This document shows positions 3,311 to 63,295 of a DNA stretch of 64,000 bases, in pieces (the stretch's first letter is position 1; every line of letters starts with the position of its first letter). The notes under the pieces are model-generated. The model had not been told where the DNA came from. It was given only the letters and a program-made list of their open reading frames with translations, and did no database searches. Origin of the DNA: Mobula hypostoma (Eukaryota); assembly GCF_963921235.1 (NCBI RefSeq), contig NC_086097.1:164922001-164986000 (forward strand), read 5' to 3'. A program made the position numbers and the translations under genes.

Positions 3311-3701
3311 TGACTGTTTATTCATATTCATAGATGCTGCTTGATCTCAAGATCTACCTTCCACCAATTTGTCCATCTTTATTGTGCTTGCCAATGATGA
3401 ATGAGTTTGTTGAATGGACAGGGAAGGAGAAACAGGAGGATCTGTTAAAATATAGAAATGCAATGGATGAATGCAGCAAGGAATCTTTGTGTCAATTCTT
3501 GATCAGCACAAGGCAAGTATAGAATGTAATAGAAAGCTAACAGAATGAGATTGCTTATTGCTAGTAAAACTACGTACAAATGTAGGGAGCTTGTGCATCA
3601 GTTTATAGCACATAGGATAGCCATCAATTATACTCTGTGCAGTAGTGGTCTCCTTAGTTGGTACAATGAAAATAGATCCAAAATGCTTTGTTAGACTAAC
3701 A

Positions 3702-3900
3702 ACACAAATAAAAGTTGCTGGTGAATGCAGCAGGCCAGGCAGCATCTCTAGGAAGAGGTACAGTCGACGTTTCAGGCCGAGACCCTTCGTCGGCCTGAAA
3801 CATCAACTGCACCTCTTCCTAGAGATGCTGCCTGGCCTGCTGCGTTCACCAGCAACTTTTATGTGTGTTGCTTGAATTTCCAGCATCTGCAGAATTCCTG
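3702..3900. mobile_element. Palindromic PLE pLTR insertion with 14-bp TSD
   Basis: About 81-bp inverted arms (3700-3780 / 3790-3870) around a 9-nt loop. Direct repeats TTGTTAGACTAACA at 3688-3701 and 3901-3914. Confidence 0.88.
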
Positions 3901-4834: not shown

Positions 4835-7800
4835 TTTCAGATCTGCACATGCAGACACATGCCAATCTCTACCCAGATAATAGGATCACCTGCCACTGAT
4901 TTCCAACTCATCACCTGCAGCCTATTTAAACCCAGCTCTCATCCATAATCCTTGTCCACACATACAAACCAGCCAGCTCAACCAGTTGCTCCTAGCTTTT
5001 CAGTTGCCTTGTTGCCTCTGAGTTTAGTATCTGTTCTCGCTTGTTTTGTGGCCCTGTGCGGCTTGCTACTCTGCAGTTTATTATTAAAGTCATCATTCAC
5101 AGATGAATCATCTCCACTGCTCTGCATTTGGGTCAAACCTCCTCTATATTGCCTGACAGGATGGATGCATCAGTGATTGACCAGAAGAGACTGCTTGCAT
5201 AAAGGAAGTCATCCATCGACAGGAGCACACAATCCAGAAGCAGCAGGAAGACATTGACCATCTGCTCGCTACTCTCAACCAACTCTCCTTTTTATCAGAG
5301 CAACCCCACACCAGTTAACTTCCTCCCTCAGAGTCTCAAGTTCTGGTGCCCAAACATTTCAAAGTATCTCCAGCCGAATGCTGCTACTGCCTATCCCAGT
5401 GCACCTTACCCCGAGCTCCAGCTATCTCTGTATTCTGTGGACTGAGCCAAGATTACTTAGTCATTTCTCTCTTGACTGACCAAGCACTGGCCCGGGCTGC
5501 CACTAACTGAGACAATAAAAAACACCCATTTTCAACCAATATGAAGATGCCACTGCTGAGATGCGCTGGGTTTTTGACTATTCAGGAAGTGGAAGGGAGG
5601 TAGCAGATCAGATATTTCACTTGCTTCAAGGCTCACAGTCAGTGCTGGATTACACGTTGGAATTCAGGACCTTCACAGTGGAGTGCAGCTGGAATGCGGA
5701 AGCACTGCTGACCCATTACTATCACAGCCTGTCAGAACACTTGAAAGATGAGCTATCTACTTGGAAGATGCCTACCGACCTCGAAAGCCTCATCACCTTG
5801 GCCCTCTGAATTGACACTGGCACTCTGGCTGAATTGAAAGCCTCATCACTCTGGCCCTGTGAAATGACCCTCCAGATCATCAGCCAGAATCCAGATCCAT
5901 TCCCAGAAACATTTCAGGCTGCAGGACCCTCCTGAGCAACACCTCCAGAACCCATGCAGTTAGAGTTCTGAGCTCCCTTAACCCCCAAGAGAGTGAGCGT
6001 TGGTGGAGAAACAACTTGTGCACTTACTGTGGAGCCAACAATCACCCACACATCAAATGCCTTCAGTGTCTGGGAAAAATGCACCACCGGGTAGAGATGA
6101 AGAGCTTTCTATCTGGTAATCACCTCTGGTCTCTCTTTCCGGCACCCTTTCTGTACTCCTCCACAGCCCAACGGCTCTACACACAAAGGAGACTCTGGTG
6201 GATTCTAGCACAGCCAGCAAATTTCTTGACTGGACTCTGTGTGTGCAGCTTGCACTCCCTACTGAGACTATCTCTCACCATTTTGCATCATAGCCATTGA
6301 CAGACATCACTTAGGGTCTGGGATGGTCAGAACGGGCACACGGAGAGCACCAGAAGTCCATCCAATTCCTCTTTATCAAGTCACCCAACAGTCCTCTCAT
6401 CCTAGGTTACCCCTGGCTCTTCACTCATGACCCTTGCTTCCCCTGGTCACCTGGTTCACTGCTGAGTTGGGGACCAACTGCCTGCAACCTCAGCTGACTT
6501 TACCCCGCAAATCTATGGAGACGGAGTAAACTTGACCTCATCAAACTCCCACAAGAATACCACAACTTAGCCATCTCCTTCAGTAAATTGGATGCCAGCA
6601 CCCTGCAGCCTCACAGACCACACAACTGAGCGATTGACCTCCTCCTGGGCACCACCTCCCCCTGAGGTCATCAGTTCTCCCCTCCTGAAACCCAAGCCAT
6701 GAATGACTACATCACCGAAGCACTACAGCATGGCTTCATTCAACCATCCAGTCCCCAGCTGTTACAGGATTCTTCTTTGTAAAAAAAAAAGGGAGTTTTC
6801 GTCCCTGCATTGAATACTGGGGACTCAGCAAATTCACCATTAAGAACCGCTACCCTCTCCCCTTGATGGATAGCACATTCAAAACTCTCCATGGGGCCCA
6901 GATCATCACCAAACTGATCTGCAGAGCACGTACAGCCTGATTCACATCTGCCAAGGGGATGAGTGGAAGACGGCATTCATAACACTCACTGGCCACTATG
7001 AGTACTTGGTGATGCCCTTTGAATTTTAAAGCAGTCCAGCTATTTTCCAAGCCTTCACTAATGAGATCTTCCAAGCCATGCTACATATGTATATGTTTGT
7101 CTACCTTGACGTCATTTCATCTTCTCAAAGGACCCCCCGGACCATGTTTGTCACGCCCATTCAGTCCTTCTGTGTTCTCTTGAAAACCAACTGTACTGCA
7201 AGCTAGAAAAATGCCAGTCCACACCCCTGTCATTTCTTTCCTGGGTTACATCCTTTTACCCCAAGGCATAACCATGGGCTCAAAGAAAGAGTGCACTATC
7301 GTTGAATGACCCCGTCTACACTGCTTCAGACAACTACAGTGCTTCTTGCGCTTCTCCAACTTCTACTATTGGTTCATCATAAACTACAGCCAAATTACTC
7401 TTTCTCTCACCTTCCTCACCAAGTCTCCTACCTCACAGATAACCTTGTCTGCTGCCATGGACCAGCTTCCAAGGAGCTCAAGAGACTCTTCACCACCACT
7501 CCTGTTCTCCTCCATCTCAACCCCTCCAGACCTTCCGTGGTAGAGGTGGATGCATCTGACACTGGCGCTGGGGCCATCCTCTTCCAGCGAGGAGTGAACA
7601 GCAAGACATACCCCTGTGACTTCTTCTTGTGCAAGTTCAACTCTACAGAGTGCTGTTATGGAGTAGGAGACTGGGAGCTATTCACCATTGAGTGGGTCTT
7701 GGTCAAGTGGAGCTGCTGGCTGATGGGAAACACTGAGCCCTTCCAGATCTGGACTCACCTCCAGAACCTCATATCCATGCAGCAGACCATCAACTCTAAC

Positions 7801-9194
7801 AATGTCAGGTTCGCTGGGCCAACTTCTTCGAGCAATCCTACTTCATCATACCCAGCTCCCTGTCAAGACAGTTCAACCCAGCAGGAATGGATATTGATCC
7901 TCAGCCTATAATGCCATCCACCTAGGTCTTCACCGTGATCATCTAGGACCTTGAGAATCAGGTCTGCCAGGCCCTCCAGCACAACCCTGCTCCGGATAAC
8001 ACACCAGACAAGTGTAAGTACATGCCTGCAGCCATGTGCTCTGATACACTCCAGCAGGCCCACTCTTCACCCAGCTCCGGGCATCTGGGTACACAGTGGA
8101 CCCTAGAGTTTCAGCGATGCTGGTTTCGCTGGCCCACCTTGTTTGAGATATGCATCAGTTTGCCACTGCCTACCCTCAATGTGCCCAGTCCAATTCCTCC
8201 AACCAGTGGCCATCTGGGCTCCTGTGGCACCTGCAGATCCCTCAATGCCATAGAACCCACATTGCCATGGATTTCATCTCACAACTGCCACCTTCCGATG
8301 GGGCCATAGTGACAATGACAGAAGTGGACCGTTTCTCCGAGGCACCCCACTTCATTGCTCTACCCAAACCTCCATCAGCCACTGAGACTGCAAACATGGT
8401 TCTTCAAGTTGTGGTTTGCATCCACAGCTTTCCCCAGGATGTTGTGTCAGACCAGAGCCCATAACTTGTCTCCAACTTCTAGCAAGCCTTTTGTGCCCTC
8501 CTTTGCATCTCAGTGAGTTTGTCCTCAGTCTATCATCCGCAGCCAACTAATCAGTCAGAGAGTGCCAATCAGCAAGTTTTTCCCTACTGAGAAGCCAATG
8601 GTGGAGGTCCTGTCTGCCAGGTCCCTGGTTTGCCAATGCCAAAATGCTTGGAAGAGGGCACAGGGGCCATCCTAATTGCCAACTTTGCCTACTGCCACCA
8701 GTCTAACCGTTGGCAGCATGCAGCCAGAGTACTTCAGCCTGGGGACAATGCTGGTTGTCCACCCTAGATCTGCCCATACTCACCGACTTCCACAAGTTGT
8801 CACCCATTCACTTACCATCTCCAGCTGCCATCGTCCCTCAGGATCACAGCTACCCTCCATGTGTCCTGCCTCAAGCTTTTTGTCCCTGAACCACTCAACC
8901 AACGGTGCCCGCACCTCCAGAACCAAGGTTGGTGGAAGGTGGTCCAGTGTGCACAGATCACTGGTTGATGGACTCACGTCATCGTGGATGGAGTGTGCAG
9001 TGCCTGATCTTGGGTGCCATTCAGTATCATCTGGGACCCATTGCTCATTGAGATTTGGGATTTCATGACCATTTGGGAGAATTCTGGGCCACCGTGGGGC
9101 GACTCTAGGAGGGGGGATCCCGTCAGACTGCATGGCAGGCACGTGCCAGTCTCTACCCAGCAAACAAGATCACCTGCCACTTCCAACTCGTCAC
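4835..9194 (+). mobile_element. Decayed Ty3/Gypsy chromovirus (sushi-like); 3' LTR truncated by a CR1
   Basis: 5' LTR about 4835-5158 ending TGACA. gag LLQGSQSVLDYTLEFRT with knuckle [35 protein letters not shown]. RNase H VEVDASDTGAGAIL. Integrase HIAMDFISQLPPS, VVSDQ. Chromodomain remnant (WVPFSIIWDPLLI). PPT AGGAGGGGGG and 3' LTR start 9121-9194 matching 4835-4914. Confidence 0.88.
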
Positions 9195-33266: not shown

Positions 33267-34722
33267 AACACAAAATAATCTGCAGATGCTGGGGTCAAAG
33301 CAACACTCACAACACGCTGGAGGAACTCAGCAGGTCGGGCAGCATCCGTGGAAACGATCAGTCAACGTTTTGGGCCAGAACCCTTCGTCAGGACTGTAGG
33401 GGGAAGGGGCAGAGGCCCTTTAAGGAAGGTGCGGGGAGGGTGGGAAGGAGAAGGCTGGTAGGTTCCAGGTGAAAAACCAGTAAGGGGAAAGATAAAGGGG
33501 TGGGGGAGGGGAAGCAGGGAGGGGATAGGCAGGAAAGGTGAAGAAAGAATAGGGGAAAACATAATGGGTGTAGAAGGAGGTGGAACCATGAGGGAGGTGA
33601 TAGGCAGCTGGGGGATGGGGCAGAGTGACATAGGGATAAAGGAAGGGAGGGGGAGGGAATTACCGGAAGGTGGAGGATTCTATGTTCATACCAAGGGGCT
33701 GGAGACTACCTAGACGGTATATGAGGTGTTGCTCCTCCAACCTGAGATTAGCCTCATCATGGCAGTAGAGGAGGCCATGTATGGATATATCTGAATGGGA
33801 GTGGGAAGCAGAGTTGAAGTGGGTGGCTGCTGGGAGATCCTGTCTGTTGTGGCGGACGGAGCGGAGGTGCTCGACGAAGCGGTCCCCCAATCTGCGTCGA
33901 GTTTCACCGATGTAGAGGAGGCCGCACTGGGAGCACCGGATGCAATAGATGACCCCAACAGACTCACAAGTGAAGTGTTGCCTCACTTGGAAGGACTGTT
34001 TGGGGCCCTGAATAGTGGCAAGAGAGGAGTTGTAGGGACAGGTGTAGCACTTGCATTTACAGGGATAAGTGCCGGGTGGGAGATCCGTGGGGAGGGACGT
34101 GTGGACCAGGGAGTCACGGAAGGACTGATCCCTGTGGAAGGCAGAGAGGGGTGGAGAAGGAAAGATGTGCTTAGTGGTGGGGTCCTGTTGAAGGTGGCGG
34201 AAGTTGCGGAGGATAATGTGCTGGATCCGGAGGCTGGTGGGGTGGTAGGTGAGGACAAGGTGAACTCTGTCCCTGTTGCGGTGGCGGGAGGATGGGTGAG
34301 GACCGAAGTGCGGGAAATGGAGGAGATACGGGTGAGGGCATCATTGATCTTCCCACCCCGTCACATGCAAAAACGCCATTCCCTATTCCCAGTTCCTCTG
34401 TCTCCGCCGCATCTGCTCCGAGGATGAGGCTTTCTGTTCCAGGACATCTCAAATGTCCTCTTTCTTTAAGGATCGTTGTTTCCCTTCTGCCGTCATCAAT
34501 GATGCCCTCACCCACATCTCCTCCATTTCCCACACTTTGGCCCTTACTGGTTTTTCACCTGGCACCTACCAGCCTTCTCCTTCCCACCCTCCCCTCACCT
34601 TCTTTATAGGGCCTCTGCCCCCTCCCTCTACAGTCCTGACGAAGGGTTCCGGCCCGAAATGTCGACCGATCTTTTCCACGGATGCTGCCCGACCTGCTGA
34701 GTTCCTCCAGCGTGTTGTGAGT
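33267..34722 (-). mobile_element. Young Penelope-like insertion with inverted structure and 17-bp TSD
   Basis: Minus arm 33267-34346 carries an open GIY-YIG C-terminus (33660-33986: GVIYCIRCSQCGLLYIGETRRRLGDRFVEH). Plus arm 34347-34722 carries an RT C-terminus (SHPVTCKNAIPYSQFLCLRRICS) and a pLTR. TSD GTTTCATAGTTTTCTTT at 33250-33266 and 34723-34739. Confidence 0.92.
34631..34668 (+). ncRNA. Minimal type-I hammerhead ribozyme motif in a PLE pLTR
   Basis: CAGTC-CTGACGA-AGGGTTCCGGCCC-GAAA-TG-TC-GACCG: stem I, conserved core, stem II, GAAA, GUC triplet. The reverse-strand sibling is at 33359-33396. Confidence 0.72.
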
Positions 34723-35194
34723 GTTTCATAGTTTTCTTTGTTTCCTGGCTGTTTGTAAGGAAGATGAACAAATGTACTTTGAATCTTTGAGTTCCTCAAG
34801 AATTTTGTGTTTGTTATGATGACCTTCCTTTGATCTGTTAAGGGATGCCTTGATGTTAAGGGCAGTTGCTCTCATCCCTTCCCCATTCAGCTGGTTTGTC
34901 TAGTTTATCTTGAAGGTTGTAATGAAGCCTGAAGCTGAACAATCTTGGTAAAAAGCAAACTGAATACTGATGAGCAGGTCGTTCATAAGTAAGTACTGCT
35001 CAAGAGCACTGTTGAGCAGTAATTGACCAGATTTATCTTGCCTGCTTCTGCTGCTGGTTGTAACTGTGATACATCAGTTTAGCTAGAGGTGCACTGTTTA
35101 TCACTGCACACCAGCTACCCAGACAGTTCTCAGTAACATGAAATTAATCGAAGCTGCTGAAGTCTGGGAACTGAGGTCCTGGGGACACCGAACA

Positions 35195-41107: not shown

Positions 41108-42080
41108 AAAGGAAGAAAAGAGGATAATAGTGCTGAAGATGAGGTAGCTAGTTTACAAACAGAGGCAATATGTAGTGAGAAGCTGTTGATAGCACAAAAT
41201 TACAGTCAACAGGGTAGGTTGCTACGTAAAAGGCGGACAAAATCAAAAAGGGTAAATACAGGACTGAAGGTGTTGTACCTGAATGCGCACAGCATACAGA
41301 ATAAGCTAGATGAACTTGTAGCAGTTGCAAATTGGCAGGCATGATGTTCTAGGCATCGCTGAATCAAAAGAAGATTATAGCTGGGAGCTTAATGTCCAAG
41401 GATACATATCGAAAGGACAGGCAGGAAGGCAGAGGGGGCAGCATTGCTTTGTTGGTATAGAAAGAGGTGACACAGGGTTGGAAGGTGTTGAATGTGGATA
41501 AAGCTAAGGATAGACTAGGGTAAAAAGACCCTGATGGGAGTTGTATACCGATTCCCAAACAGTAGTAAGGATGTGGCCTAAAAATTACAATGGGAGATAG
41601 GAAATGCATGCCAAGATGGCAATGTTACAATAGTCATGGATGACTTTAATTTGCAGGTAGATTGGAAAAATCAGCTTGATGCTGGATTCCAGGAGGGGGT
41701 ATTTCTAGAGTGCCTATGAGATGCCTTTTTAGAGCAGCTAATGGTTGAGCCCACTGCAGGATCAGCTATTCTGGATTGAGTGTTGTGTAATTGATTAGAG
41801 AGCTTAAGGCAAAAGAATGCTAAGGAACAAGTGGTCATAATATGATCAAATTCACCTTGAAATTTGAGAAGGAGAAGCTATAGTCAGGTGTATCAGTATT
41901 ACAGGGGAGCAAAGAGAGTTACAGAGACATGAGAGAGGAGTTCGCCAGAATTCATTGGAAAAGGACACTGCCAGGATGACAGCAGAGCGGCAAAGGCCGG
42001 AATTTCTGGAAGCAATTTGGAAGACACAGGATATATACATCCAAAGAGAAAGAAGAATTCTAAAGGCAAGATAATACAAC

Positions 42081-42174
42081 TGTTATGATATACTTGTACA
42101 TGCACTCGTGAGCAGACGATTAAAGTGGGAGCGCATGCGCCGTTGTTTTTATCTGAAATATCTGTCTCAAAACA
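42081..42174 (+). repeat. 5' LTR (94 bp) of the Gypsy element
   Basis: TG...CA termini. Aligns to 53250-53333 with 10 substitutions and one 10-bp indel (hand count). Confidence 0.92.
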
Positions 42175-42190
42175 TGGTGGCAGTGGTGGG
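42175..42190 (+). promoter_or_regulatory. Primer-binding site complementary to the tRNA-Leu 3' end
   Basis: TGGTGGCAGTGGTGGG directly after the LTR CA. It is the reverse complement of the ...CCCACC(A/G)CTGCCA-CCA end of eukaryotic tRNA-Leu. Confidence 0.8.
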
Positions 42191-42249
42191 GCTCAGAAAA
42201 TTGCTTTTTACAACCACAGCATCCGATTTTTTCAACTTGCAGTTGGCAG

Positions 42250-42868
42250 CATAACAGGCCTAGAGAGAAAGGGGGAGAGGAGGGAAAGCAGGATCTCCCA
42301 GTGGACACACATTTTAATTTCACGTCCCACTCCCATTCTGATATGTCTATCCATGGCCTCCTCTACTGTCAAGATGAAGCCACACTCAGGTTGGAGGAAC
42401 AACACCTTATATTCCATCTGGGTAGTCTCCAATCTGATGGCATGAACATTGACTTCTCTAACTTCCGTTAATGCCCCACCACCATTATTTATTTCTTCTT
42501 TATTATTATTATATATATGTATATATACATATATATATTCTCTCTCTCCTTTTTCTCCCTCTGTCCCTATGACTATACCCCTTGCCCATCCTCTGGGTTC
42601 CCCCCTCCCCCTTGTCTTTCTCCCTAGGCCTCCTGTCCCATGATCCTCTCATATCCTTTTTGCCAATCACCTTTCCAGCTCTTGGCTCCATTCCTCCCCT
42701 TCCTGTCTTCTCCTATCATTTTGGATCTCCCCCTCCCCCTCCCACTTTCAAATCTCTTACTAACTTTTCCTTCAGTTAGTCCTGACGAAGGGTCTCAGCC
42801 TGAAACATCGACTGTACCTCTTCCTAGAGACGCTGCCTGGCCTGCTGCATTCACCAGCAAATTTTATG
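42250..42868 (+). mobile_element. Penelope-like element 3' fragment (GIY-YIG C-terminus + pLTR) nested in the Gypsy element
   Basis: QDLPVDTHFN...HSHSDMSIHGLLYC...LRLEEQHLIFHLGSLQSDGMNIDF, pyrimidine-rich spacer, then pLTR with CTGACGA...GAAA. A short inverted pLTR piece appears to lie at 42250-42285. Confidence 0.85.
42777..42814 (+). ncRNA. Minimal hammerhead ribozyme motif in a PLE pLTR
   Basis: TAGTC-CTGACGA-AGGGTCTCAGCCT-GAAA-CA-TC-GACTG. Confidence 0.65.
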
Positions 42869-42869
42869 T

Positions 42870-45800
42870 CAGTGACAGCAGCACCAAGTTTATCGACAAT
42901 GTCATACTGGTGGTCAACAGTTTGAAGACAAAGGATGATGTATTCACACAGATGCTCATCAATGGAAAGCCAACAGACTTCCAAGTCGACAGCGGGGCGA
43001 GCAGTAACATTTTACCCCGCAAATACTTGGAGGGAGTAGACCACTCACTAAGACAATGCACAAAAAAGCTGATGATGTGGAACAAGACCACCATGGATGC
43101 AGAAGGGATGTGTAGAGTGAAACTGCGTAACCCCATGACGAACTGCAAGTATTCTGTCGAATTTGTCATGGTCACTGACTTTACACCATTACTGAGAAGT
43201 AGGGCCAGCCAGCAAATGAATCTGATTACAGTCAACGATGACAACTTTCGCAGGGTGCATGCATCTACACTTAAAGAAAAACAATGCACACCAGCAGAAC
43301 GCTATGCAGAGGTGTTCGATGATACGCTCGGGGAGCTTCCGGATGCAGCCCACCTGCAGATTGATGAGGAAGTTCAACCTACAGTGTTACCCCCATGATG
43401 TCTACCTCACGCTATGAAGCGGGAAGTGAAAGCTGAGCTCGATCAACTGGTAGACCGCAAGGTGATAGCTCCAGTCCATGAACCTACAAGGTGGGTTAGC
43501 CAGTTAGTAGTCGCAGAGAACAAGAACGGCAGTCTTCATATATGCATCGACCCTTGACCATTGAACAAAGCGCTGAGGAGAGAACACTACCCCCTTCTGG
43601 TGATAGAGGACATTTTGCCAGATCTTGACCAGGCTAAGGTTTTCAGCAAGCTTGACAGGAGTTCTGCATTCTGGCAAGTGAAATTGGACAGTGAATCGAG
43701 CGTGCTCACCACTTTCAACACACCTTTCGGGCAGTATAGATGGCTCAGACTCCTGTTTGGAACCGGCGTTTCATCAGTGATCTTCCAGCGCAGGCTGCAC
43801 CAGGCGCTGGAAGGACTACCAGGAGTGATCTACGTCACAGACGGCATTCTGGTGTACGAAAAAGGGGAAACACAGGAAAAGGCAATCGCCGATCAGGATG
43901 TGAAACTTGAGCAGCTATTACAGCGTTGTATATCAGGCTCAACAAGAATAAATCTGTCTTCAGAGGGACAGAGATACCCTTTTTGGGGCACCTCATCACA
44001 AGTGAGGGACTTCAGCCTGATCCTAAAAAGGTCGCTGACGTTCTCAACATGCCAGCACCCACGGATGTGCAGGGAGTGCAGTGATTGATCAGATTTGTCA
44101 ACTACCTGAGCCGTTTTCTACCAAGTCTCTCAGATACCCTTGAGCCAATAAGACAGCTGACAAAGCCAGATGTAGCATGGGAGTGGTCAGCTGAGCAGCA
44201 AAACGCTCTCTCAAGATCAAGCGGATGGTATCCGAAGCACCGGTGTTAGCATACTACAATTCTAAGGAAAAGCTAACCATCCAATGTGACGCCAGCAACC
44301 AAGGCCTAGGGGCAGCACTCCTCCAGAATGGATGTCCGATCACATATGCGAGCAGAGCGCTAACGGACACAGAAACGCATTACGCAGCGATTGAAAAGGA
44401 AATGCAATCATTTTCACACTTGAGCGTTTTCATCAATACACTTTTGGCCGCTTCACAAGAGTACTCAGCGATCACAAGCCGCTCGAAATGATAGTTAAGA
44501 CGCCTTTGGTGAAGGCACCGAAGCGCCTACAGGGAGTTCTTCTTCGCCTGCAAAGCTATGACTTTGACATCACCTACCGTCAAGGAAAGCTCATGCACCT
44601 CGCGGATACACTATCGCGAGCAGTCAGCGGTACTCCAGGCCAGGAGAACAGCTTCAACGAAGTCTACATGCTTTCGCACCTGCCAATCCGCGATGAGCGT
44701 CTAGAGCAGATCCGCACAGAAACAGCGAAAGATGACACACTATTGATGTTGAAACGCGTAATGATCAGTGGATGGCCGAGCGAGTGTGACATGCTACCAG
44801 AGCAACTCACACCTTACTATAGCTATAGGGATGAGCTCACAATCCAAGACGGCTTAATCTTCAAAGGTGAGTGCGTTATAATACCGCCAAGTGAGCGAAA
44901 GCAAATGAAGGAAAGAATTCATTTGTCACATTTGGATGTAGAAGGATGCCTCAGACGTGCATGCGAATGTCTTTTTTGACCGGGCATGAGCAGCGACATC
45001 AAGCAATATATTGCTACATGTGATGTTTGTCGCACATACCAAGTGAGTCAGCAGAAAGAATCGTTTATGAGTCCTGAGGTACCTGCTCGGCCGTGGGAAA
45101 AGATACCGACCTGTGTACATTCGAAGGAAAAGAGTACTTCATCACCATTGATTACTACAGCAATTTCTTCAAGGTAGATCTTTGCGATACGACCAGCGCT
45201 GCCGTTATTCGCAAATTGAAGGCTCATTTTGCGAGATATGGTAGCCCAACACAAGTGGTTAGTGATAATGGGCCACAATACACGTCAGTGGAGTTTCACA
45301 GATTTGCACGAGAATGGAATCTTGAGCACTTGTGTTGCAGCCCCAGAAATAGCAGAGCGAATGGAAAAGCTGAATCAGCAGTCAAAACAGCTAAGCGGAT
45401 CCTCACAAAGAGCAACAGATTGCGAGCATATCCCTACCTCGCACTTCTCGACCTTCGCAAAGGCTCAGCACAAGTCCTGCCCAGCAACTGATGAATCGCC
45501 ACACACACACGCTTCTGCCTACAACAGCGAGTTTACTGGAACCCAGAGTTGTACACGAACGCGAGCATATGAAACAACACGTCCAGCAGCAGGTCAACAA
45601 TTACAACAAATCAGCCAAAGATCTTGCCCCACTCGACGAAGGGGATACCGTGTGCAAGGTCAAAAGAATTGGGAGAAAGCAATTGTGTGTTGGCACCTTG
45701 ATGAGCACTCATATGTAGTTCAAACCCCTTCTGGGATCTACCGACGTAATCGCACACATCTATGAAAGACGGCTCAGGAACCGCCTGAAAAGCTAATCAC

Positions 45801-48800
45801 ATATGAACAGGCAAAACCAGGCCAAACAACCAAGATCAATGACCCCAGTGTGCCTACTGCATCAAATGCACACAGCCAAACACTAGCAGAGGCTAATGAC
45901 AATGACCCCAGTGTGCCTACTGCATCAAATGCACACAGCCAAACACCAGCAGAGCCTAATGACAATGACCCCAGTGTGCCTACTGCATCAAATGCACACA
46001 GCCAAACACTAGCAGAGGCTAATGACAATGACCCCAGTGTGCCTACTGCATCAAATGCACACAGCCAAACACTAGCAGAGGCTAATGACAATGACCACGG
46101 TGTGTCTACTGCATCAAATGCACACAGCCAAACACTAGCAGAGGCTAATGACAATGACCACGGTGTGTCTACTGCATCAAATGCACACAGCCAAACACTA
46201 GCAGAGGCTAATGACAATGACCACGGTGTGTCTACTGCATCAAATGCACACAGCCAAACACTAGCAGAGGCTAATGACAATGACCACGGTGTGCCTACTG
46301 CATCAAATGCACACAGCCAAACACTAGCAGAGGCTAATGACAATGACCACGGTGTGTCTACTGCATCAAATGCACACAGCCAAACACTAGCAGAGGCTAA
46401 TGACAATGACCACGGTGTGTCTACTGCATCAAATGCACACAGCCAAACACTAGCAGAGGCTAATGACAATGACCCCAGTGTGCCTACTGCATCAAATGCA
46501 CACAGCCAAACACTAGCAGAGGCTAATGACAATGACCACGGTGTGCCTACTGCATCAAATGCACACAGCCAAACACCAGCAGAGGCTAATGACAATGACC
46601 CCAGTGTGCCTACTGCATCAAATGCACACAGCCAAACACTAGCAGAGGCTAATGACAATGACCACGGTGTGTCTACTGCATCAAATGCACACAGCCAAAC
46701 ACTAGCAGAGGCTAATAACAATGACCCCAGTGTGTCTACTGCATCAAATGCACACAGCCAAACACTAGCAGAGGCTAATAACAATGACCCCAGTGTGCCT
46801 ACTGCATCAAATGCACACAGCCAAACACTAGCAGAGGCTAATGACAATGACCCCAGTGTGCCTACTGCATCAAATGCACACAGCCAAACACTAGCAGAGG
46901 CTAATGACAATGACCACGGTGTGTCTACTGCATCAAATGCACACAGCCAAACACTAGCAGAGGCTAATGACAATGACCCCAGTGTGCCTACTGCATCAAA
47001 TGCACACAGCCAAACACTAGCAGAGGCTAATGACAATGACCACGGTGTGTCTACTGCATCAAATGCACACAGCCAAACACTAGCAGAGGCTAATGACAAT
47101 GACCCCAGTGTGCCTACTGCATCAAATGCACACAGCCAAACACTAGCAGAGGCTAATGACAATGACCACGGTGTGCCTACTGCATCAAATGCACACAGCC
47201 AAACACTAGCAGAGGCTAATGACAATGACCACGGTGTGCCTACTGCATCAAATGCACACAGCCAAACACTAGCAGAGGCTAATAACAATGACCACGGTGT
47301 ATCTACTGCATCAAATGCACACAGCCAAACACTAGCAGAGGCTAATGACAATGACCACGGTGTGTCTACTGCATCAAATGCACACAGCCAAACACTAGCA
47401 GAGGCTAATGACAATGACCACGGTGTGTCTACTGCATCAAATGCACACAGCCAAACACTAGCAGAGGCTAATAACAATGACCCCAGTGTGTCTACTGCAT
47501 CAAATGCACACAGCCAAACACTAGCAGAGGCTAATGACAATGACCCCAGTGTGCCTACTGCATCAAATGCACACAGCCAAACACTAGCAGAGGCTAATGA
47601 CAATGACCACGGTGTGTCTACTGCATCAAATGCACACAGCCAAACACTAGCAGAGGCTAATAACAATGACCACGGTGTGTCTACTGCATCAAATGCACAC
47701 AGCCAAACACTAGCAGAGGCTAATAACAATGACCCCAGTGTGTCTACTGCATCAAATGCACACAGCCAAACACTAGCAGAGGCTAATGACAATGACCACG
47801 GTGTGCCTACTGCATCAAATGCACACAGCCAAACACTAGCAGAGGCTAATGACAATGACCCCAGTGTGCCTACTGCATCAAATGCACACAGCCAAACACT
47901 AGCAGAGGCTAATAACAATGACCACGGTGTGTCTACTGCATCAAATGCACACAGCCAAACACTAGCAGAGGCTAATGACAATGACCACGGTGTGTCTACT
48001 GCATCAAATGCACACAGCCAAACACTAGCAGAGGCTAATAACAATGACCCCAGTGTGTCTACTGCATCAAATGCACACAGCCAAACACTAGCAGAGGCTA
48101 ATAACAATGACCCCAGTGTGCCTACTGCATCAAATGCACACAGCCAAACACTAGCAGAGGCTAATGACAATGACCCCAGTGTGCCTACTGCATCAAATGC
48201 ACACAGCCAAACACTAGCAGAGGCTAATGACAATGACCACGGTGTGTCTACTGCATCAAATGCACACAGCCAAACACTAGCAGAGGCTAATGACAATGAC
48301 CACGGTGTGCCTACTGCATCAAATGCACACAGCCAAACACTAGCAGAGGCTAATGACAATGACCACGGTGTGTCTACTGCATCAAATGCACACAGCCAAA
48401 CACTAGCAGAGGCTAATGACAATGACCCCAGTGTGCCTACTGCATCAAATGCACAGAGCCAAACACTAGCAGAGGCTAATGACAATGACCACGGTGTGCC
48501 TACTGCATCAAATGCACACAGCCAAACACTAGCAGAGGCTAATGACAATGACCCCAGTGTGCCTACTGCATCAAATGCACACAGCCAAACACTAGCAGAG
48601 GCTAATAACAATGACCACGGTGTATCTACTGCATCAAATGCACACAGCCAAACACTAGCAGAGGCTAATGACAATGACCACGGTGTGCCTACTGCATCAA
48701 ATGCACACAGCCAAACACTAGCAGAGGCTAATGACAATGACCACGGTGTGTCTACTGCATCAAATGCACACAGCCAAACACTAGCAGAGGCTAATAACAA

Positions 48801-51800
48801 TGACCCCAGTGTGTCTACTGCATCAAATGCACACAGCCAAACACTAGCAGAGGCTAATAACAATGACCCCAGTGTGCCTACTGCATCAAATGCACACAGC
48901 CAAACACTAGCAGAGGCTAATGACAATGACCCCAGTGTGCCTACTGCATCAAATGCACACAGCCAAACACTAGCAGAGGCTAATGACAATGACCACGGTG
49001 TGTCTACTGCATCAAATGCACACAGCCAAACACTAGCAGAGGCTAATGACAATGACCCCAGTGTGTCTACTGCATCAAATGCACACAGCCAAACACTAGC
49101 AGAGGCTAATAACAATGACCACGGTGTGTCTACTGCATCAAATGCACACAGCCAAACACTAGCAGAGGCTAATGACAATGACCACGGTGTGTCTACTGCA
49201 TCAAATGCACACAGCCAAACACTAGCAGAGGCTAATGACAATGACCCCAGTGTGCCTACTGCATCAAATGCACACAGCCAAACACTAGCAGAGGCTAATG
49301 ACAATGACCCCAGTGTGCCTACTGCATCAAATGCACACAGCCAAACACTAGCAGAGGCTAATGACAATGACCACGGTGTGCCTACTGCATCAAATGCACA
49401 CAGCCAAACACTAGCAGAGGCTAATGACAATGACCCCAGTGTGCCTACTGCATCAAATGCACACAGCCAAACACTAGCAGAGGCTAATGACAATGACCCC
49501 AGTGTGTCTACTGCATCAAATGCACACAGCCAAACACTAGCAGAGGCTAATGACAATGACCACGGTGTGCCTACTGCATCAAATGCACACAGCCAAACAC
49601 TAGCAGAGGCTAATGACAATGACTACTGTGTGCCTACTGCATCAAATGCACACAGCCAAACACTAGCAGAGGCTAATAACAATGACGCCAGTGTGTCTAC
49701 TGCATCAAATGCACACAGCCAAACACTAGCAGAGGCTAATAACAATGACCCCAGTGTGTCTACTGCATCAAATGCACACAGCCAAACACTAGCAGAGGCT
49801 AATGACAATGACCACGGTGTGTCTACTGCATCAAATGCACACAGCCAAACACTAGCAGAGGCTAATGACAATGACCACGGTGTGTCTACTGCATCAAATG
49901 CACACAGCCAAACACTAGCAGAGGCTAATGACAATGACCACGGTGTGTCTACTGCATCAAATGCACACAGCCAAACACTAGCAGAGGCTAATGACAATGA
50001 CCACGGTGTGTCTACTGCATCAAATGCACACAGCCAAACACTAGCAGAGGCTAATGACAATGACCACGGTGTGCCTACTGCATCAAATGCACACAGCCAA
50101 ACACTAGCAGAGGCTAATGACAATGACCACGGTGTGTCTACTGCATCAAATGCACACAGCCAAACACTAGCAGAGGCTAATGACAATGACCACGGTGTGT
50201 CTACTGCATCAAATGCACACAGCCAAACACTAGCAGAGGCTAATGACAATGACCCCAGTGTGTCTACTGCATCAAATGCACACAGCCAAACACTAGCAGA
50301 GGCTAATGACAATGACCACGGTGTGCCTACTGCATCAAATGCACACAGCCAAACACCAGCAGAGGCTAATGACAATGACCCCAGTGTGCCTACTGCATCA
50401 AATGCACACAGCCAAACACTAGCAGAGGCTAATGACAATGACCCCAGTGTGCCTACTGCATCAAATGCACACAGCCAAACACTAGCAGAGGCTAATGACA
50501 ATGACCACCGTGTGTCTACTGCATCAAATGCACACAGCCAAACACTAGCAGAGGCTAATGACAATGACCCCAGTGTGCCTACTGCATCAAATGCACACAG
50601 CCAAACACTAGCAGAGGCTAATGACAATGACCACGGTGTGTCTACTGCATCAAATGCACACAGCCAAACACTAGCAGAGGCTAATGACAATGACCCCAGT
50701 GTGTCTACTGCATCAAATGCACACAGCCAAACACTAGCAGAGGCTAATGACAATGACCCCAGTGTGCCTACTGCATCAAATGCACACAGCCAAACACTAG
50801 CAGAGGCTAATGACAATGACCCCAGTGTGCCTACTGCATCAAATGCACACAGCCAAACACTAGCAGAGGCTAATGACAATGACCACGGTGTGTCTACTGC
50901 ATCAAATGCACACAGCCAAACACTAGCAGAGGCTAATGACAATGACCCCAGTGTGCCTACTGCATCAAATGCACACAGCCAAACACTAGCAGAGGCTAAT
51001 GACAATGACCCCAGTGTGCCTACTGCATCAAATGCACACAGCCAAACACTAGCAGAGGCTAATGACAATGACCACGGTGTGTCTACTGCATCAAATGCAC
51101 ACAGCCAAACACTAGCAGAGGCTAATGACAATGACCCCAGTGTGTCTACTGCATCAAATGCACACAGCCAAACACTAGCAGAGGCTAATGACAATGACCC
51201 CAGTGTGCCTACTGCATCAAATGCACACAGCCAAACACTAGCAGAGGCTAATGACAATGACCACGGTGTGCCTACTGCATCAAATGCACACAGCCAAACA
51301 CTAGCAGAGGCTAATGACAATGACCCCAGTGTGCCTACTGCATCAAATGCACACAGCCAAACACTAGCAGAGGCTAATGACAATGACTACTGTGTGCCTA
51401 CTGCATCAAATGCACACAGCCAAACACTAGCAGAGGCTAATGACAATGACCCCAGTGTGTCTACTGCATCAAATGCACACAGCCAAACACTAGCAGAGGC
51501 TAATAACAATGACCCCAGTGTGTCTACTGCATCAAATGCACACAGCCAAACACTAGCAGAGGCTAATGACAATGACTACTGTGTGCCTACTGCATCAAAT
51601 GCACACAGCCAAACACTAGCAGAGGCTAATGACAATGACCACGGTGTGCCTACTGCATCAAATGCACACAGCCAAACACTAGCAGAGGCTAATAACAATG
51701 ACCCCAGTGTGTCTACTGCATCAAATGCACACAGCCAAACACTAGCAGAGGCTAATGACAATGACCCCAGTGTGCCTACTGCATCAAATGCACACAGCCA

Positions 51801-52899
51801 AACACTAGCAGAGGCTAATGACAATGACCACGGTGTGCCTACTGCATCAAATGCACACAGCCAAACACTAGCAGAGGCTAATGACAATGACCCCAGTGTG
51901 TCTACTGCATCAAATGCACACAGCCAAACACTAGCAGAGGCTAATGACAATGACCACGGTGTGTCTACTGCATCAAATGCACACAGCCAAACACTAGCAG
52001 AGGCTAATGACAATGACCCCAGTGTGCCTACTGCATCAAATGCACACAGCCAAACACTAGCAGAGGCTAATGACAATGACCCCAGTGTGCCTACTGCATC
52101 AAATGCACACAGCCAAACACTAGCAGAGGCTAATAACAATGACCCCAGTGTGTCTACTGCATCAAATGCACACAGCCAAACACTAGCAGAGGCTAATAAC
52201 AATGACCCCAGTGTGTCTACTGCATCAAATGCACACAGCCAAACACTAGCAGAGGCTAATGACAATGACCCCAGTGTGCCTACTGCATCAAATGCACACA
52301 GCCAAACACTAGCAGAGGCTAATGACAATGACCACGGTGTGCCTACTGCATCAAATGCACACAGCCAAACACTAGCAGAGGCTAATGACAATGACCCCAG
52401 TGTGTCTACTGCATCAAATGCACACAGCCAAACACTAGCAGAGGCTAATGACAATGACCCCAGTGTGCCTACTGCATCAAATGCACACAGCCAAACACTA
52501 GCAGAGGCTAATGACAATGACCCCAGTGTGTCTACTGCATCAAATGCACACAGCCAAACACTAGCAGAGGCTAACGACAATGACCCCAGTGTGTCTACTG
52601 CATCAAATGCACACAGCCAAACACTAGCAGAGGCTAATGACAATGACCCCAGTGTGCCTACTGCATCAAATGCACACAGCCAAACACTAGCAGAGGCTAA
52701 TGACGATAACCCCAGTGTGCCTACTGCATCAAATGCACACAGCCAAACACTAGCAGAGGCTAATGACACAACACAAACACTAACACAAACGTTGAAAAAT
52801 GCAAATAACAAACAACAAGACTCGGATAAAACAGTAAAAGCTTATTCTGGCCGCACAGTGAAAAGACCACAATATCTAGAAGGCTTTGTCCCACATTGA
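42870..52899 (+). pseudogene. pol: Disrupted Gypsy pol (protease, RT, RNase H, integrase, repeat-expanded tail)
   Basis: Protease FQVDSGASSNILP. RT LNKALRREHYP...FSKLD...FWQV...TFNTPFGQYRWLRL. RNase H IQCDASNQGLGAALLQ. Integrase PARPWEK, ITIDYYSNFF, VVSDNGPQY, NGKAESAVKTAK, YRRNRTHL. C-terminus YSGRTVKRPQYL*. Multiple stops and frameshifts. Confidence 0.92.
45838..52767 (+). repeat. 63-bp minisatellite, 110 tandem units (6930 bp)
   Basis: Unit AATGAC[CCCAGT/CACGGT/TACTGT]GTG[C/T]CTACTGCATCAAATGCACACAGCCAAACACTAGCAGAGGCTAAT[G/A]AC. The length is exactly 110x63 with no indels. It accounts for ORFs 45850-52899(+) and 45774-52811(-). Confidence 0.99.
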
Positions 52900-53249
52900 A
52901 TAATTGCATGAACAATTGAACAATAAGTCTGTGACACTGTTTGGCATTTTACTGTCATGTTTATACTCAAAGGAGGACCATATCCTATTTGAGGTTGTGT
53001 AGTTTGTAGTTTGAAGTTAAAATCAAATTTTAGTATGTTTTATATATTGTGTATATATGCTCATACAAACGGAAATAATAAGTGGTACAGTATGTATTTG
53101 TGACAGGCATAAGAGACATAAGGCATGATTAATGAATGCTTTGAAAGTTAATTCCATGAAAATACACTGGAAAGCAGACTTCAGAGAAATTGAGTTTAAT
53201 TGTTAATACAATTGTTCCTTTTCTTTGTTTTGATTTTAAAAAAAGGGGC

Positions 53250-53333
53250 TGTTATGGTATATTTGTACATGCACTCGTGAGAAGACGATTAAAGTTTGTG
53301 CGCATGTGCCGTTGTTTAATCTGTCTCGAACCA
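53250..53333 (+). repeat. 3' LTR (84 bp) of the Gypsy element
   Basis: TG...CA termini, preceded by a polypurine tract at 53238-53248 and followed by TSD CAAC. Confidence 0.92.
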
Positions 53334-54654
53334 CAACCATGGATAATAAGAGAAGTCAAAGCCAACAGAATAACCAAAGGGAGCAGAAATTAGTGGGAAG
53401 TTTGAGGATTGGGAAGCTTTCTAAAAAATCAACATAAGGCAACTAAAAAAGTCATTAAGAAGTAAAGATAGAATAAGAAGATAAGTTAGCCAGTAATATT
53501 AAAGAGGATACCAAAAGTATCTTCAGATACATAAGGTGTAAAAGGGTGGCAAGAGTGAATATCAGGCTGCTGGAAAACTATGCTGGAGAGGTAGTAATGG
53601 GGGACAACAAAATAGCAGACAAATTGAATAAGTATTGTGCATCAGTCTTCACTATGGAAGACACTAGCAGTATGGTGGAAGTTCCAGGTATCAGGGGTCA
53701 TGAAGTGTGTGAAATTACCATTACTAGAGAGAAGGTTCTTCGGAAACTTCAAGGTCTGAAGATAGATAAGTCACCTGGACATGATGGTGTACACCCCAGA
53801 GTTATGAAAGAGGTGGCTGAAGAGATCGTGGAGGCATCAGTAATGATTTTCACAATCTCTGGATTCTGGAATGGTTCCAGAATACTGGAAAATTGCAAAT
53901 ATCACTCGACTCTTCAAGAAAGGAGAGAGGCAGAAGAAAGGAAACTATAGGCTAGTTAATCTGACCTTAGTGGCTGGGAAGATGTTGGAGTTGATTATTA
54001 AGGATGAGGTTTCAGGGTATTTGGAGGCACATGATTAAATAGGCCGTAGTCAGCATGGCTTCCTCAAGGGAAAATCTTGCCTGACAAATCTGTTGGAATT
54101 CTTTGAAGAAATAACAGGCAGTATAGACAAAGGAGAATCAGTTGATGTTGTGAACTTGGATTTTGAGAAGACCTTTCACAAGGTGCCACACATGAGGCTG
54201 CTTAACAATCTACAAGCCCTTGGTACAGGAAAGATTCCAGCATGGATAAAGCAGTGGCTGATTGGCAGGAGGCAAAGTGTGGGAAAAAAGGGATCCTTAT
54301 CTGGCTGGCTGCCGGTGATGAACCGTGTTCCAGTGGGGCTTGTGTTGGGACCAATTTTTTTTATGTTATTTATCTATGATTTGGATGATGGAATTAATGG
54401 CTTTGTTGAAAAGTTTGCAGACGATATGAAAATAGGTGGAGGGGCAGGTAGCTTTGAGGAAGTTGGGAGGCTACAGAAGGATCTAGAAAGATTAGGAGAA
54501 TGGTCAAAAGAGTGACAGATGGAATACAGTGTCTAGAAATGTGTGATCATGTATTTTGGTAGAAGAAATGAAAGGGTTGACTATTTTATAAATGGAGAGA
54601 AAATACAAAAAACTGAGGTGCAAAGGGACTTGGGAATCTTTGTGTAGGATTCCC

Positions 54655-55395
54655 TATACCTCCTCCCTCACTACCATTCAGTCCTTCCAGGTGAGGTGAC
54701 ACTTTACCTCTGAATTTGTTGGGGTCACATACTGTGTCCAGTGTTCTTGGTGTGGCCTCCTGTATATCAATGAGACCCGACGTAAATTGGGAGACCGCTT
54801 CACTGAGCACCTAAGCTCAGTCCACAAGAAGAAACGAGATCTCCCAGTGGCCATTCATTTTAATCCCACTTCCCATTCCCATTCTGATATGTCAACCCAT
54901 GGCCTCCTCTACTGTTATGATGAGGCCACACTCAGGTTGAAGGAAAAACACCTTATATTCCATTTGGGTAACCTCCAACCTGATGGCATGAACATTGACT
55001 TCTTGAGCAGCCAGTAATGTCTCCCCCCGACCTCCCCATTCCCCATCCCCTTTTCCTTCTCTCACCTAATCTCCTTGCCTGCCCATCGCCTCCCTCTGGT
55101 GCTCCTCCCTCTTTTCGTTCTTCCATGGCTTTCTACCCTCTCCTATTAGATTCCCTCTTCTCCAGCCCTGTATCTCTTTCACCAATCAACTTCCCAGCTT
55201 TTATTTTATCGCTCCCCCTCCCGGTTTCACCTATCATGCTGTGTTTCTCTCTCCCCGCCCCCCACCTTTTAAATCTACTCCTCATCTATTTTTTTCCAGT
55301 TCTGCCGAAAGGTCTCGGCCCAAAACGTTGACTGTACTTTTTTCCATAGATGCTGCCTGGCCTATTGAGTTCCTCCAGCATTTTGTATGTGCTGC
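54655..55395 (+). mobile_element. Penelope-like element 3' fragment inserted in the CR1
   Basis: GIY-YIG remnant (CGLLYINETRRKLGDRFTEHL...LQPDGMNIDF) plus pLTR. The CR1 RT sequence resumes at about 55396. Confidence 0.87.
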
Positions 55396-60994: not shown

Positions 60995-63295
60995 GGGGTG
61001 TCTGTGGCTGCAAGGAGACGCTAGGATGGTGTGTTGCCTCTCTTGATTGCAGAGTCAAGGATGTCTCACAACACAGAAAGAACATTCTAAGAGGGAAGGG
61101 TGAGCAAGCCAAAGATTGTGGTCCGTATAGGTAGTGGTGACACAGGCAGGAGCTGGGGTCAGTTCTTGCAGAGGAATATTAGGGAGTTGGGTAGAAAATT
61201 TAAAAAGCAGCTCATCCAAGATTTTAATCTCAGGATTACTATCCGTGCTACATGCAAGTGAGGTGAGAAATAGATACATTGTGGAGTTCAATGCATGACT
61301 AAAGTGTTGGTGCAGGAGAGAAGGCCTCAGATTTATGAATCATTTGGATCTCTTCAAAGGCATGTGGAACCTGTATAAACGAGACAGTTTATATCAGAAC
61401 TGGAGGGGAACTAATATCCTCATTGAGATATTTGCTGGGTGCTACTCAGGAATTTTTATGCCAGATTGGCAGGACAATGGGAAACACAGTGGCAGGGCAA
61501 TAGGTGGTAGAAATGAGAGCAAGAAAGGTGGTATGGCAAGTCAAGATAGCAAAGGACCAGCTAATAAACATGGTGGGATTGATGGGCTAAAATACGAGGG
61601 GTGATTGATAAGTTTGTGGACTAAGGTAGAAGGAGATGAGTTATTAGCTTCAAACTTTCTGCATAATCACTCAGAGTTGAACTGCATGTGCATGTAATGA
61701 GAGCTGTATAACTCATCTCCTTCTACCTTAGGCCACGAACTTATCAATCACCCCTCGTATGTTCATTACAGCCTGAGATATATTATGGATAAGTACCATA
61801 AATATTGTACATGGAATTAAGATGTTAGTGCTGTTACCAAGACCTGCTTGTGTGAGGGACAGAACTGGCAGCTTTTGTTCCTGGGTTTCATTGTTCAGAC
61901 CCCACAGAGAGGGGTCTAAAAGAGGCAGAGGGTTGCACTACTGGATAAACGAGAATGTCACAGCAGTAATCAGACAGGACATACTGAAGGGTTCGTGAAC
62001 TGAAGCAATTCAGATAGAGCTCAGAAATTGGATAGTTGCAATTATGCTGATAAAATCATACTCTAGAACCACCAATAGCTACCAAGAGGTGGAAGACAGA
62101 TTAATACAGAAATCTGCAGAAACAACAGGTTTGTCATGGTGTGAGACTTTATCTTCACCAGCATTGGTTGGAATTTCTTCGATACAAGAGGCTTTGATGG
62201 GGTGGCATTTACTCAGTCCATCCACTGGATGATTCCAGGAATGAAGGGGTTAACATATGAGGATCTTTGGGCAGCTCTGGGCTTGTACTCACTGGAATCT
62301 AGAAGAATGCATGGGGATCTCATTGAAACCTACTGAACATTGAAAGGACAAGATAAGGTGGATGTGGAGAGGGTGCTTTCTCTGGCGGGGGTATCCAGGA
62401 CTAGAGGGCGCAGCATCAAAATTAAGGGGGAACCTGTTAGAATGAAAGTAAGGAGGAATTATTCATAGGCAAAGAGTGGTGAATCAGTGGAATACTCTGC
62501 CACAGACTATGGTGGAGGCCAGGTCCATGGGTATCTTCAAAGCAGAAGTTAATAGATTCCTGATTGGTCGGGGATCAAGGGATATGGTGAGAGGGCAGGT
62601 ATATGGGGTTGAATGGGATCCAGGATTAGCCATGATGAAATGACAGAGCGGACTCGATGGGCTGAATAACCTAATTCTGCTCCGATGTCTTATGGTCTAC
62701 TAGAGGAGATATGATCCAGGTCAGGTTACTGACCAGATAATGGATGAACATTTTGGGAATAGTGATCACACCTCACTATGGTTTAAGATAGTTATGAGTA
62801 AGGATAAAATTGGATCCTGTGGAAAGATATTAAATTGAGAGGGGACAAATTTCAATAGGATAAGACAGGAGTTGGACAAGTCCATGTCTGACGTGTGGAA
62901 GTTGTTTAAAGACCAGCTGATCAAGTTCGGAATCAACATGTTCCCATAAGGAGTAAGGATGGTAAGGTAAAGAAACATTGAGTGACTCAAGACGCTGTAT
63001 GCTTCATCACGAAGAAAAGGGAGTATACATAAGGTTTCAGAAGCCAAAATCAGACAGGGCCATTGTGGAATATTAAGGTTGAAGGAAAGTGCTGAAGTAA
63101 GCAATTAGTAAAGTCAAAATGGAGCATGAAATGTCCTTGGTGAGCAGGTTCAAGGATAACCCCAAGACATTTTTTACTTGTATGAAGATGAAAAGGATAT
63201 CGAAGGAGAGGGTAGGTCCACTCAAGGATAAAGGAGGGAAATTTTACTTGGAGTCAGGCTGAGGTAGCAAATGAGTATTTTGTATTGATATTTAT
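60995..63295 (+). mobile_element. Old CR1 (ORF1 esterase + ORF2 fragments) with a nested CR1 3' piece (about 62228-62698) and a MITE
   Basis: ILISGLLS...WCRREGLRFMNHLDLF resembles 40450-40810. A CR1 tail AATTCTGCTCCGATGTCTTATGG lies at about 62672-62696. Confidence 0.78.
61595..61757. mobile_element. Tc1/mariner-type MITE (163 bp)
   Basis: 50-bp TIRs CGAGGGGTGATTGATAAGTT...GAGTTAT with 2 mismatches. TA duplication at 61593-61594 and 61758-61759. Confidence 0.92.

Follow-up and report, generated by a model that had tools for sequence, protein, structure and literature searches.

That LTR retrotransposons give rise to tandem repeats is well known. In excerpts of PMC3305785 and PMC7004042, Ty3/gypsy elements of the Ogre/Tat type (Gmr9/GmOgre and others) are described as carrying minisatellites downstream of the integrase core, in a number that varies between copies, and such arrays sometimes expand, reaching nearly 3,000 bp in soybean and forming satellites in Lathyrus. 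In maize, CRM1TR and CRM4TR are single-locus arrays derived from Gypsy sequence, and their variation is attributed to gene conversion in the excerpt of PMC3648361. In vertebrates, too, transposable elements have given rise to minisatellites: Ms6-hm of the mouse lies in MaLR LTRs, and some 7276 cases are counted in humans (excerpts of PMC6947457 and PMC9659126); according to the latter, new repeats can start from any part of an element. The assertion, made in a preliminary description of the DNA analysed here, that retroelements can seed minisatellites is thus documented, as far as these excerpts go, for Ogre, CRM and vertebrate elements.

We analysed a stretch of 64,000 nucleotides from Mobula hypostoma (the window), in which a tandem array of 63-bp units occupies the integrase tail of a Gypsy element. 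As in the Ogre/Tat elements, the repeats lie within a Gypsy element and downstream of the integrase core. However, the Ogre/Tat arrays are described, in the same excerpts, from plants and from the 3' untranslated region (UTR), past the stop codon, whereas the present one is found in an animal, in the coding tail of the integrase, upstream of the SGR motif and of the stop, as a homogeneous block of 6.9 kb. According to the portion of PMC9659126 at hand, the CRM1TR and CRM4TR monomers consist of LTR and untranslated sequence of centromeric elements, whereas here the monomer is a 21-codon coding linker. As in our array, the unit of the vertebrate cases expanded within a dead element that was already in place, but those cited in the excerpts lie in LTRs, SINEs and non-coding parts, with no integrase-tail case among them. 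No literature title or abstract opening that we found describes a repeat array lying in frame within the integrase tail of a Gypsy element, so that the position of this array may be undescribed; the process is known, and the coding-tail position is the only unusual point. We are rather confident that the array is real and young, a minisatellite that expanded neutrally within the integrase tail of a dead Gypsy element.

The element spans 42081-53333 (11,253 bp) and is inserted in a LINE, which we take to be CR1-like (Table 1). It shows the hallmarks of Ty3/Gypsy, namely TG...CA LTRs with a short target-site duplication, the order of the pol domains, and a primer site with a polypurine tract; a candidate clade would be Mag. 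The two LTRs, both very short, differ by 10 substitutions over 84 aligned positions (12%), and the extra 10-bp piece of the 5' LTR resembles a local duplication. A self-priming primer site was considered and rejected, its complement fitting the LTR at only 7/14 positions. The first ~300 residues of the homologues, which correspond to gag, have no match in the element. In their place, 42292-42457 and 42652-42869 match other repeats of the window at 89% and 71% identity, respectively. The missing gag means that this copy is defective, not that it belongs to another class of element. The dispersed piece that replaces gag contains a TA run and matches 54838-55390, 33655-33842 and other places.

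Table 1. Coordinates of the Gypsy element, its array and the interrupted LINE in the window.
Feature	Position	Strand	Evidence or remark
Left half of interrupted LINE	41458..42076	+	Two other window copies uninterrupted across the site
Left target-site duplication CAAC	42077..42080	+	Left flank ends ...ATACAAC, right flank starts CAACCATGG; a 5-bp reading also fits
5' LTR, 94 bp, TG...CA	42081..42174	+	74/84 aligned bases identical to 3' LTR; one 10-bp indel
Primer-binding-site-like sequence, TGG start	42175..42192	+	Adjoins 5' LTR
Dispersed non-LTR repeat piece in place of the missing gag	42290..42870	+	Repeat matches; homologues align only from 42871
Decayed pol: protease, RT, RNase H, integrase	42871..45765	+	Pfam; 67-83% identity to P0002 in pieces
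TGA between integrase C-terminal motif and tail	45763..45765	+	79/79 motif-bearing homologues read on without a stop
Unique tail start, KTAQEPPEK...	45766..45836	+	Aligns with homologue tails, e.g. P0002 to residue 1312
Minisatellite, 110 x 63 bp, in frame with integrase tail	45837..52768	+	Tandem Repeats Finder
Unique tail end: SGRTVKRP motif and natural stop	52769..52899	+	52795-52890 against P0002 residues 1350-1382, 52%
3' untranslated region ending in polypurine tract	52900..53249	+	AAAAAAAGGGG abuts LTR; sibling contigs cover the region
3' LTR, 84 bp	53250..53333	+	Pairs with 5' LTR
Right target-site duplication CAAC	53334..53337	+	Matches left duplication
Right half of interrupted LINE with RT piece	53338..54600	+	RVT_1, E 9e-19 at 54039-54512

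The Pfam domains follow the Gypsy order, gag-asp_proteas (below the cut-off), RVT_1, RT_RNaseH and rve, and pol is colinear with P0001-P0003. In agreement with the preliminary description, pol is rich in lesions outside the array: compared with P0002, the frame of 42871-45786 shifts 6 times and meets 5 stops. Since the last frame change lies near 45652, the frame of the array would be severed from pol even without the TGA at the start of the tail, which, judging from the homologues, is itself a lesion and not the natural end of the integrase. P0001-P0003 are the nearest proteins among 120 hits (70-73% identity) and form one clade with the element, with support 98/96, in a tree made of database hits only, the best 40 of the 120. 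P0003, from Strongylocentrotus purpuratus and named K02A2.6-like by NCBI, has the same domain order as the element, with 70-73% identity over the linker between RNase H and integrase. The K02A2.6-like polyproteins share the RRNR..L motif and the SGRTVKRP end of the element but, unlike it, have tails of 72-80 aa without such a repeat. Over 43558-44976, pieces of pol share 70-84% identity with sea-urchin P0003 despite the decay; the overall median of the hits is 53-57%. This closeness may point to a horizontal transfer involving marine invertebrates and a cartilaginous fish, a case for which we saw no match among literature titles.

We then compared the integrase tails of the homologues. The homologue set comprised 120 proteins of up to 2000 aa, and the 79 bearing the RRNR..L motif were retained, the 41 non-matching ones being left out. 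Past this motif all 79 continue, for 8-143 aa (median 80), with low complexity; many finish in an SGR-like basic motif, and 8/79 contain short adjacent self-repeats. The tail of our element measures about 68 aa without the array and about 89 aa with a single unit, which is an ordinary size. Because the homologous tails vary in length and sometimes self-repeat, the array appears to lie in a repeat-prone linker, one that tolerates and breeds in-frame duplications. These data agree with the earlier characterization of Gypsy integrase tails as variable, low-complexity linkers, and they support its main reading, the neutral amplification of a linker repeat.

By Tandem Repeats Finder, the array has a period of 63, 110.0 copies, 96% matches and 0% indels, and is the sole large array of the window, which contains no N bases. 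Its size (110 units of 63 bp, 6.9 kb, without indels), its share of more than half of the element (62% of 11,253 bp) and the unit peptides were as previously described. The 110 units fall into 18 types, with 15 variant alleles at 12 of the 63 columns, and differ from each other by 3.3% on average; position 22 of the unit is a T in all 110. Only 7 changes per 6930 bp (0.10%) are confined to a single unit. Some rare variants are common to far-apart units (61/89/92 and 2/12/72). The longest repeated block of unit types is 6 units, a length reached or exceeded by 63 of 1000 shuffles; we detected no higher-order periodicity in the unit order above shuffles, and adjacent units resemble each other no more than they do in shuffles. 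All four allele pairs are present among sites 9, 17 and 62. Linkage between alleles is low, with r2 of 0.04-0.10 at 8-18 bp and about zero at 45-63 bp, and 2 of 21 linkage tests, at 116 bp and 126 bp, are nominally significant (P 0.005 and 0.012). CpG observed/expected is 0.71 in pol (42871-45765) and 0.13-0.14 in the array and UTR.

With 110 head-to-tail units of 63 bp, the array is a minisatellite (VNTR), a class with units of about 10-100 bp and arrays of up to some kb, for which the excerpt of the review PMC6947457 gives 'up to 100 units' without an agreed limit. Satellites, as defined in the accessible part of PMC7004042, span tens of kb to Mb and are free of the parent element, whereas our array measures 6.9 kb and lies entirely within its Gypsy element; the suggestion of a 'satellite birth' was therefore too strong for one 6.9-kb minisatellite. 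An origin from short flanking repeats (the Haber and Louis model, as related in the same excerpt of PMC6947457) was considered: AATGAC occurs at each end of the unit, yet with a spacing of 57 bp where the period is 63, so the period does not follow directly from it.

Beside the array, the locus shows at least 20 private differences in 563 bp (about 3.6%) with respect to sibling contigs from two organisms, in 40 of 56 rows of the comparison. Compared with this flank value and with the 12% of the LTRs, the 0.1% of single-unit changes means that the array turned over long after the insertion, about 35-60 times more recently by this rough proxy. The common unit variants may nevertheless be as old as the locus, only their spread being young, since the mean difference between units is close to the locus's own divergence. 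The interspersed pattern of the variants would fit short-tract conversion combined with slippage or unequal exchange. Similar interspersed variant units are seen in the MVR maps of human minisatellites.

The question whether the array reflects a locus event or a family trait was addressed with public sequencing runs, 20 of the 24 listed holding part of 52640-53330 and none holding half or more of it. Contigs were compared over 52641-53420 in 4 of the 24. Run X1 has a 211-bp contig over 53205-53415 that spans the junction between LTR and LINE with 0 differences (depth 3.35), so this run holds the exact locus and may be the source sample of the window. In X1 the UTR contig of the family has a depth of 29 and the unit bins 43-456; in X11, from another organism, the UTR has 17.4, single unit contigs 36-42 and the unit bins 70-152. 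As the unit contigs of X11 are at least about twice as deep as the UTR, the unit is a feature of the family and seems to be present about twice or more per sibling element. The position-22 marker was read at 52725, in one of the two units covered: it is T in 132 of 165 depth in X1, about 39 times the single-copy depth at one position, and in 0 of 43 in X11. Thus, the locus-type unit is amplified where the locus is present and is not seen in the contigs of the X11 siblings. Contig depth differs from copy number and is inflated by overlapping short contigs, and the ranges read from it are therefore wide: about 2-12 units per element in X11, and tens to more than 100 T-type units in X1, which supports a large locus-specific array but does not fix the number of 110. 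Both sides of the question thus stand in part: the unit is family-wide, probably with several copies per element, while the 110-unit array looks, from rough contig depths, specific to this locus. Among the runs listed as containing the sequence none is labelled RNA, which says nothing for or against expression. Run X16, from another sample and guessed, though unproven, to be RNA, has unit and tail contigs with sibling letters, the locus type accounting for 0 of 35.6 depth at 52725, although contigs cannot show absence. In X1, contig depth rises to 149 over the LTR but is 29 over the UTR, an excess suggestive of solo LTRs.

Two other origins of the array were weighed against late growth at this locus. 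One is that a long array was already present in the active parent, as part of a subfamily transposing with tens to hundreds of tail repeats. Such a subfamily could account for a summed unit depth several-fold above that of the UTR in both X1 and X11, and the tails of relatives do duplicate, but an inherited array should have aged like its flanks, which the rate of single-unit changes contradicts, and the fixed letter at position 22 is absent from the sibling contigs of X11. Moreover, none of the 79 homologous tails, from proteins of up to 2000 aa, exceeds 143 aa, and the repeat with its tail matches no protein in the two length ranges searched (given below); inheritance is unlikely. The other is that the assembly over-expanded a shorter array, which we hold to be very unlikely. 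Long tandem arrays are a known weak spot of assemblies, and among the contigs listed none spans the array, nor was a spanning read seen; however, the window has no gap of N, rare variants are shared by distant units, and the absence of repeated blocks or periodicity beyond shuffles counts against a copy-paste error. In addition, the separately assembled contigs of X1 carry the locus-type unit at least at about 39 times the single-copy depth, a value inflated by overlaps.

The stop-to-stop frame covers 45766-52899, i.e. 2377 codons. It had been reported as a 2349-aa ORF; the frame is real but that length counts from a GTG at 45850, inside the first unit. Its other described properties were borne out: it is in frame with the integrase motif YRRNRTHL, from which the single TGA separates it, and it finishes in the Gypsy-type end YSGRTVKRPQYLEGFVPH*. 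The preliminary description also implied that an intact frame is surprising beside a broken pol. Indeed, at the rate of pol, with 11 lesions in 2.9 kb, some 26 would be expected in 6.9 kb of the same age, but the frame is explained by the youth of the array and by a unit in which few changes make a stop (4 of the 189 possible single changes). The probability of no stop among the 15 variant alleles is about 0.73, at least one of the six frames is open in 96% of 20,000 shuffled units, and only 3 stops interrupt one of the minus-strand frames of the array, which is thus almost as open. Thirteen of the 15 alleles alter the amino acid; the 2 silent ones compare with 44 of 189 possible changes (23%; P=0.29), so that this weak test gives no excess of silent changes and no indication of purifying selection. 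Hence, the array exceeds chance and the open frame does not, and its being unbroken is no sign of selection. Rather than a new protein, the 2377-codon frame probably represents a side effect of the growth of the repeat.

Exaptation, which the preliminary description held less likely, would have turned the frame into a repetitive protein of the mucin type or an exon of a host gene. The unbroken codons of the frame, which encode a S/T/N/A-rich and probably disordered peptide, and an AATAAA at 53288 in the 3' LTR would suit such a role, but the frame has no ATG, the nearest in-frame ones lying upstream of the TGA, the acceptor-like sites upstream are only weak (12/18 pyrimidines), and most alleles change the residue. 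Searched as a protein, the repeat with its tail matched 0 of 7355 candidates of 187-2000 aa and 0 of 3105 of 1307-4160 aa. The sole HMMER match among 1.84 billion proteins, P0121, is a 1938-aa protein with T/A/S/D-rich repeats and 33% identity, which we read as compositional; the best ESM Atlas score, 0.82, is within reach of shuffled proteins, and the exact 25-base unit pattern gave 0 matches in metagenome contigs. Of the 40 longer ORFs of the window, 20 were scanned with Pfam and none showed a host-gene domain; the Phage_tail_3 match on the tail (E 0.006, below the cut-off) is attributed to chance. A domesticated gene would be expected to show entry by a start or splice site, purifying selection and conserved orthologues. 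With no ATG, no silent-change excess and no protein match, exaptation is unsupported and in our view extremely improbable, and the frame, judged from its sequence, most likely makes no protein.

The neutrally expanded minisatellite would have the following history. In a K02A2.6-like Gypsy family of a cartilaginous fish, the integrase tail would have carried the 63-bp (21-codon) unit, probably in few tandem copies, and only in-frame, stop-free repeats would have been tolerated there, thereby setting the length and frame of the unit. This copy inserted into the LINE and decayed, with loss of gag and breakage of pol, as observed. Later, the short array would have grown to 110 units, homogenised and shuffled, as its youth and mixed variants indicate, presumably by the ordinary turnover of minisatellites, that is slippage, unequal exchange and short-tract conversion. 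The 2377-codon frame would follow from the seed unit, the mutations being too few to break it. Growth to 110 copies most likely took place after the death of this Gypsy copy.

This locus is a clear-cut case, from a vertebrate, of a minisatellite that arose in the coding tail of a retrotransposon, and its internal clocks (the LTR pair, the sibling copies and the fixed marker letter) place the expansion after the insertion. It also shows that a multi-kb ORF can arise with no selection at work, which can mislead gene annotation. If the siblings differ widely in unit number, they would form a natural series on the start of a minisatellite and on runaway growth at a single locus. More tentatively, and we regard it as rather doubtful, active members of the family may have encoded a variable-number tail repeat, each insertion planting a hypermutable in-frame minisatellite seed of which some grew; the multi-kb open frames of seeded copies could then be raw material for new repetitive proteins.

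Other features were observed in the window. A second, distant Gypsy-type pol remnant lies at 6700-7911 (RT_RNaseH_2, E 1e-19; 25-38% to P0001-P0003), and on the minus strand 33663-34340 resembles GIY-YIG, narrowly missing the Pfam cut-off (E 1.6e-4), and probably belongs to a Penelope-type element. Fold-back repeats are present at 3700-3870 (a 171-bp palindrome, 91%), at 33302-34725 (an inverted pair of 185 bp with about 1 kb between the arms, 94%) and at 61589-61763 (a 175-bp palindrome, 80%).
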